From the NCBI RefSeq assembly GCF_003334305.1, contig NZ_QOWS01000071.1: a stretch of 713 bases of DNA; one strand, written 5' to 3'. A model generated the notes under the pieces. That model was not told where the DNA came from. It did no database searches and saw nothing but the letters and a program-made list of their open reading frames with translations. Both the position numbers and the translations under genes were made by a program. This document shows positions 1 through 713 of this stretch, in pieces. The DNA is from Escherichia coli (GTDB lineage Bacteria; Pseudomonadota; Gammaproteobacteria; Enterobacterales; Enterobacteriaceae). Position 1 is the stretch's first letter, and each line of letters begins with the position of its first letter.

Positions 1-464
1 TTGTCATGCAGCTCCACCGATTTTGAGAACGACAGCGACTTCCGTCCCAGCCGTGCCAGGTGCTGCCTCAGATTCAGGTTATGCCGCTCAATTCGCTGCG
101 TATATCGCTTGCTGATTACGTGCAGCTTTCCCTTCAGGCGGGATTCATACAGCGGCCAGCCATCCGTCATCCATATCACCACGTCAAAGGGTGACAGCAG
201 GCTCATAAGACGCCCCAGCGTCGCCATAGTGCGTTCACCGAATACGTGCGCAACAACCGTCTTCCGGAGACTGTCATACGCGTAAAACAGCCAGCGCTGG
301 CGCGATTTAGCCCCGACATAGCCCCACTGTTCGTCCATTTCCGCGCAGACGATGACGTCACTGCCCGGCTGTATGCGCGAGGTTACCGACTGCGGCCTGA
401 GTTTTTTAAGTGACGTAAAATCGTGTTGAGGCCAACGCCCATAATGCGGGCAGTTACCCGGCAT
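1..464 (-). CDS. insB: InsB (the B' catalytic part of IS1 transposase), 3'-truncated by the window edge. Annotated ATG at 462-464; 154 complete codons in the window; last complete codon at 3-5 (GAC, Asp); positions 1-2 are the first two bases of the next codon.
   Basis: Manual minus-strand translation from the ATG at 462-464: [154 protein letters not shown], with no in-frame stop. This matches IS1 InsB as I recall it; full InsB is 167 aa, so about 13 codons plus the stop lie outside the window. Confidence 0.9.
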
Positions 465-658
465 CCAACGCCATTCATGGCCATATCAATGATTTTCTGG
501 TGCGTACCGGGTTGAGAAGCGGTGTAAGTGAACTGCAGTTGCCATGTTTTACGGCAGTGAGAGCAGAGATAGCGCTGATGTCCGGCGGTGCTTTTGCCGT
601 TACGCACCACCCCGTCAGTAGCTGAACAGGAGGGACAGCTGATAGAAACAGAAGCCAC
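1..658 (-). CDS. InsAB' transposase: the fusion product of the insA and insB' frames via the -1 frameshift at 401-407, 3'-partial in this window
   Basis: Inference from the intact insA frame, the intact A6C motif and the uninterrupted insB frame downstream, combined with the established IS1 expression mechanism. The fusion is not directly observable from sequence. Confidence 0.8.
383..658 (-). CDS. insA: InsA, the IS1 DNA-binding protein and transposition inhibitor/repressor, 91 aa, GTG start, TAA stop at 383-385
   Basis: Matches the six-frame [38 protein letters not shown]...[18 protein letters not shown]. It has an N-terminal CxxC...CxxC zinc-finger-like motif (C8, C11, C32, C35) and a C-terminal helix-turn-helix-like segment. 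The protein matches IS1 InsA as I recall it, at the expected IS1 coordinates 56-331. Confidence 0.95.
401..407 (-). other. Programmed -1 ribosomal frameshift slippery heptamer A6C (AAAAAAC) that fuses InsA to the InsB' frame
   Basis: Seen: plus-strand gtttttt at 401-407 reads AAAAAAC on the minus strand, within CAC TTA AAA AAC TCA near the end of insA. insA codons begin at positions congruent to 1 mod 3 and insB codons at positions congruent to 2 mod 3, so a -1 slip moves from the insA frame into the insB frame. Established knowledge: the IS1 transposase InsAB' is made by -1 frameshifting at this A6C run. Confidence 0.9.
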
Positions 659-665
659 TGGAGCA

Positions 666-669
666 CCTC
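666..669 (-). other. Ribosome-binding site (GAGG) for insA
   Basis: Seen: GAGG on the minus strand, 7 nt upstream of the insA GTG start codon at 656-658. Confidence 0.5.
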
Positions 670-689
670 AAAAACACCATCATACACTA

Positions 690-702
690 AATCAGTAAGT
701 TG
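690..702 (+). promoter_or_regulatory. Candidate IHF binding site inside IRL
   Basis: Seen: plus-strand AATCAGTAAGTTG matches the IHF consensus WATCAANNNNTTR with one mismatch (G for A at position 6). Established knowledge: IHF binds the ends of IS1. Site is predicted from the motif only. Confidence 0.4.
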
Positions 703-713
703 GCAGCATCACC
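691..713 (-). repeat. IS1 left terminal inverted repeat (IRL), about 23 bp
   Basis: Window 691-713 is atcagtaagttggcagcatcacc; its reverse complement GGTGATGCTGCCAACTTACTGAT is the canonical IS1 end. The matching IRR is outside the window, so the inverted pairing cannot be checked here. Confidence 0.9.

Follow-up and report, generated by a model that had tools for sequence, protein, structure and literature searches.

A 713-base Escherichia coli sequence matching the first 93% of insertion sequence IS1 on the minus strand

The DNA analyzed here, a stretch of 713 nucleotides from Escherichia coli referred to below as the window, lies wholly inside the insertion sequence IS1. The reverse complement of window positions 1-713 coincides with positions 1-713 of the 768-bp element at 100% identity and without gaps, base 713 of the window being base 1 of the element. 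The window corresponds to the first 93% of IS1 in minus-strand orientation. Its end falls 55 bp before the right end of the element, leaving out the right inverted repeat (IRR) and the final 40 nt of insB. We conclude that it almost certainly represents positions 1-713, minus strand, of a 768-bp IS1 copy, an IS1A-type isoform with the InsA substitution A68V, whose remaining 55 bp are most likely present in the source molecule. IS1 is one of the earliest known and most thoroughly studied insertion sequences of bacteria; the element is already known, belongs to a known isoform family and holds nothing unexplained.

A preliminary description made from the letters of the sequence had presented the whole window as a known IS1 element. 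The placement inside IS1 stands, but not the implication of a complete element, since 713 of the 768 bp are present. The further statement that every base is IS1 was borne out: all 713 bases align to annotated IS1 in reverse orientation, ungapped and at 100%. Where partial or low-identity matches, or a segment other than IS1, had been proposed as signs to the contrary, we obtained full-length, 100% identical, reverse-orientation matches to IS1 and found no foreign segment.

Three full-length copies were retrieved with their flanks. In each of them the window matches element positions 1-713, and beyond element 713 the copies have a further 55 bases, AAGTCATCGGGC...GGAGTCATTACC, which bring them to 768 bp. 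Matching copies carry the RefSeq label 'IS1-like element IS1A family transposase', and the CDS note on the three full copies reads 'programmed frameshift'. The source sequence is 713 bases long, all of them window, with no flanking base on either side; a source of this length with one exact IS terminus resembles a collapsed-repeat contig of a short-read assembly. The parts that had been listed for the window (IRL, insA promoter, insA, frameshift site and insB) were all recovered on the minus strand, the promoter as a motif-based prediction. They are given below with the two bases that differ from the IS1A of strain MG1655.

691..713, minus strand: left terminal inverted repeat (IRL), GGTGATGCTGCCAACTTACTGAT; full copies begin exactly here
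679..706, minus strand: promoter-like site overlapping IRL, with a 16-nt spacer (sequence match)
706-701, minus strand: -35 hexamer CTGCCA (promoter motif search)
684-679, minus strand: -10 hexamer TATGAT (promoter motif search)
666-669, minus strand: GAGG, Shine-Dalgarno-like motif
383..658, minus strand: insA open reading frame, GTG start (658-656), 91 codons and a TAA stop (385-383)
456, minus strand: element 258 C>T relative to MG1655 IS1A; A68V in InsA/InsAB', HTH domain
452, minus strand: element 262 A>T relative to MG1655 IS1A; synonymous in insA
1..464, minus strand: insB reading frame, annotated ATG at 464 (element 250), cut by the window end (K-12 annotation)
401..407, minus strand: A6C slippery heptamer A AAA AAC (element 307-313), -1 site (motif and register)
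87..335, minus strand: span of the three putative catalytic DDE codons of InsAB' (computed positions)
333-335, minus strand: putative catalytic D109, in EMDEQW (motif context)
162-164, minus strand: putative catalytic D166, in MTDGW (motif context)
87-89, minus strand: putative catalytic E191 (motif context)

Terminal inverted repeats of about 23-30 bp, starting GGTRATG, are found at both ends of IS1. The IRR lies beyond the window itself and was found in the three full copies, which are otherwise identical to the window; in these, the first 23 nt of the element and the reverse complement of the IRR agree at 18 of 23 positions. A published account puts the IS1 inverted repeats at about 30 bp and places a weak promoter partly within IRL (PMC12428005). 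The promoter-like site that overlaps IRL is the single sigma-70-like match in the window, against a mean of 0.3 in shuffled sequences, and as a candidate it fits the weak insA promoter known as PIS1 or PIRL.

The insA frame occupies the same element position as the K-12 insA1 annotation, and its translation ends in ...LKNSGRSR. The protein domains agree with IS1 in both Pfam and NCBIfam. By its Pfam domains InsA is a zinc ribbon and helix-turn-helix (HTH) protein, a predicted repressor: Zn_ribbon_InsA covers residues 1-36 (E 1.5e-20) and HTH_Tnp_IS1 residues 43-86 (E 1e-27). The NCBIfam model IS1_IS1595_Zn is matched at 40.9 bits, relative to a cut-off of 28. We also observed a 13-nt inverted repeat inside insA, 92% complementary, whose arms (498-510 and 597-609) stand 86 nt apart; it is probably a chance occurrence.

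The heptamer AAAAAAC occurs only once in the element, 18 nt upstream of the insA stop and in the register A_AAA_AAC relative to insA. From the slip site to the end of the window the -1 frame is open, and a -1 slip at A6C would fuse insA to the insB frame, giving the transposase InsAB', a mechanism published for IS1 together with the mention of a stimulatory pseudoknot at the site (PMC12428005). We looked for a stimulatory structure by folding 86 nt that begin 8 nt upstream of the heptamer (window 415-330, minus strand). The minimum free energy of -22.7 kcal/mol is not more favorable than that of shuffled sequences (z = 0.10; 118 of 200 dinucleotide shuffles fold at least as well), a result that neither supports nor excludes the published pseudoknot, as the folding tool cannot model such structures.

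The insB frame is free of stops from element 229 to window base 1; the K-12 insB1 annotation covers element 250-753. The missing tail of insB amounts to 40 nt, that is, 13 codons, KVIGHYLNIKHYQ, and the stop. When the -1 slip was simulated, 219 of the 232 codons of the fusion were found to be encoded within the window. Residues 102-219 of the fusion match Pfam DDE_Tnp_IS1 (PF03400; E 4.5e-69) over model positions 1-118 of 131, the match being cut by the window end. Furthermore, the NCBIfam equivalog transpos_IS1 is matched over its whole profile (1-199 of 199) with 241.5 bits, compared with a curated cut-off of 100. Judging from motif context, D109, D166 and E191 are likely to be the catalytic DDE residues, and all three fall inside the window. 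Open reading frames on the plus strand, such as 1-285 (94 aa), are antisense to insB and were set aside as unsupported.

For this copy, we infer the mechanism from sequence identity to IS1. A weak promoter overlapping IRL would transcribe insA and insB. Standard decoding would yield InsA, which would bind the terminal repeats, repress the promoter and compete with the transposase. Close to the end of insA, a rare -1 slip at A AAA AAC would bypass the insA stop and yield the 232-aa InsAB', a predicted DDE transposase that would act on IRL and IRR and generate target duplications of 8-9 bp. The same organization and regulation have been described for IS1 (PMC12428005; PMC12903888). The reported rate of -1 frameshifting at A6C is about 2%, and removal of the frameshift requirement raises IS1 transposition about 1000-fold, a rise that is reversed by added InsA (PMC12428005).

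The 55 bp that are missing from the window more likely reflect a window or contig edge than a real truncation. IS1 is a multi-copy element and commonly breaks short-read assemblies. An edge is favored because such an element typically collapses or breaks these assemblies, because a window that ends exactly at an IS terminus fits an assembly break, because the retained part is without decay, and because a copy that covers 80% or more of the query is found in about 95% of the matching E. coli records. Assemblers are commonly run with a k-mer size of 55, and we may speculate that the missing tail is a trimmed k-mer overlap (768 - 713 = 55).

The window could instead derive from a genuine truncated remnant of IS1, in which the last 55 bp, comprising IRR and the InsAB' C-terminus, were lost by deletion, insertion of an adjacent IS or recombination. 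One end of the window is the exact IRL terminus and the opposite end, at element 713, lies inside insB, an arrangement that a genuine truncation would also give. Partial copies do exist: in about 500 of the 9545 records that match, no place covers 80% or more of the query, and IS1 fragments are common in plasmids. However, the window holds no junction sequence, and a truncation point at its end would look no different from a window or contig edge. In addition, copies that span 80% or more of the query are found in 9045 of the 9545 records, the open reading frames are all intact, and copies flanked by target duplications match the sequence at 100% identity. We therefore consider a remnant unlikely. 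Without one of its ends, such a remnant would be unable to move as a unit, yet it could still produce InsA, serve as homology for recombination or pair with the end of another IS1. With an edge as the preferred explanation, the source sequence would be expected to continue past window base 1 with element 714 onward, AAGTCATCGGGCATTATC... (AAGTCATCGGGCATTATCTGAACATAAAACACTATCAATAAGTTGGAGTCATTACC).

To survey the distribution of the element, we reverse-complemented the window and compared it by megablast with every complete E. coli genome in RefSeq. Matches were obtained in 9545 records, belonging to 4971 of the 5426 complete genomes, with a median of 11 match places per genome. In 6164 of the 9545 records the best place has an identity of 99% or more, and the top matches show 100% identity over 1-713 in a single ungapped piece that bears IS1A-family transposase features. 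In the plasmid collection, at least 5000 records match the window; among the matches listed, those that are full-length and 100% identical come from Escherichia, Klebsiella and Salmonella, and plasmid matches also occur outside these three genera. The phage collection contains 20 records with the element, including P1, SfIV and GER2, with identities of up to 99.7%. Across the full window the copies in P1, SfIV and GER2 are 98.7-99.7% identical, and none of them reaches 100%. Since these phage copies are near-identical, the genomic context of the window is not deducible from the insertion sequence alone.

Another possible origin is a non-natural locus, with IS1 having hopped into a cloned insert, a vector or a phage while these were propagated in E. 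coli, or with the sequence being E. coli contamination of another sample. Nearly every E. coli genome has IS1, which also occurs in phage records such as P1 and SfIV, and the window has no host-specific flank. However, nothing positive points to such an origin, this exact isoform is found widely among natural isolates of human, animal, food and water origin, and the identity of the sequence would be unchanged either way. We regard this origin as very improbable.

The window had also been described as free of cargo and unexplained structure, and our searches agree, with nothing further revealed: Rfam at permissive E-values gave no match on either strand of the window, a scan of the window for tRNA and tmRNA returned none, and a scan of the window for tandem repeats returned none. 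Internal repeats, direct and inverted, are limited to 10-15 nt and all lie within coding regions. They were treated as chance or coding-sequence matches, none being needed to explain the window. A terminator-like match on the plus strand (573-587) was likewise dismissed: one was found where 0.6 are expected by chance, and it is antisense to insA. For annotation purposes, the window should be masked, or labeled as an IS1 whose 3' end is incomplete. When so short a contig terminates at an IS end, it probably reflects a break in the assembly at a multi-copy repeat, and the neighboring genes, possibly including resistance genes in IS1-bounded composite transposons, must be looked for in other contigs or long reads.

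The isoform was characterized by a base-by-base comparison of the window with the annotated IS1A of MG1655. The K-12 IS1A/IS1E sequence, the 'consensus' and transpositionally active IS1, is the same as the window at 711 of 713 bases and shares its IRL, promoter region, insA, A6C site, insB frame and DDE region; it differs in having element 714-768, which the window is without. Over the shared length, element 258 and element 262 are the only differences. As both lie upstream of the frameshift site, any effect that they have in the insB frame is absent from InsAB'. We then searched the E. coli records with a 61-nt query centered on the two variant bases (window 424-484). This segment is matched at 99% or better in 912 of 8351 matching records and at 95-99% in 7411 of them. 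The T258/T262 isoform is a minority type, but a common one.

Two of the full copies of this isoform interrupt other genes. One is located inside a leucine-rich-repeat gene and is bordered by an 8-bp target duplication, CAAACTCT; the other interrupts a fimbrial usher gene and has a target duplication of 9 bp, TAGCCATCT. Duplications of 8 and 9 bp at unrelated sites are the mark of independent transposition events, and the isoform is, or recently was, mobile. There is a rather small chance that A68V in the HTH domain might alter binding of the inverted repeats by InsA/InsAB', or that the copy is a real remnant devoid of IRR. If the reading of A68V were true, the balance between repression and transposition, the transposition rate and the spread on plasmids might differ from those of K-12 IS1A.

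The third full copy, at positions 401-1168 of plasmid p4_0.1 (NZ_CP023850.1), is without a target-site duplication and adjoins a frameshifted RelE/ParE toxin pseudogene. The lack of a duplication fits a later rearrangement, and the setting points to IS1-mediated rearrangement or deletion more than to simple insertion.

A more distant relative is the IS1 copy beside catA1 in plasmid R100 (NC_002134.1, 21225-21992), which has the same length and organization. It is 98.9% identical to the window over 713 bases, ungapped, with eight substitutions as compared with two for K-12 IS1A, which is thus the nearer of the two to the window. The differences from R100 cluster at element 258-304 and 393-444, and RefSeq labels the R100 copy 'IS1B family' and the isoform of the window 'IS1A family'.
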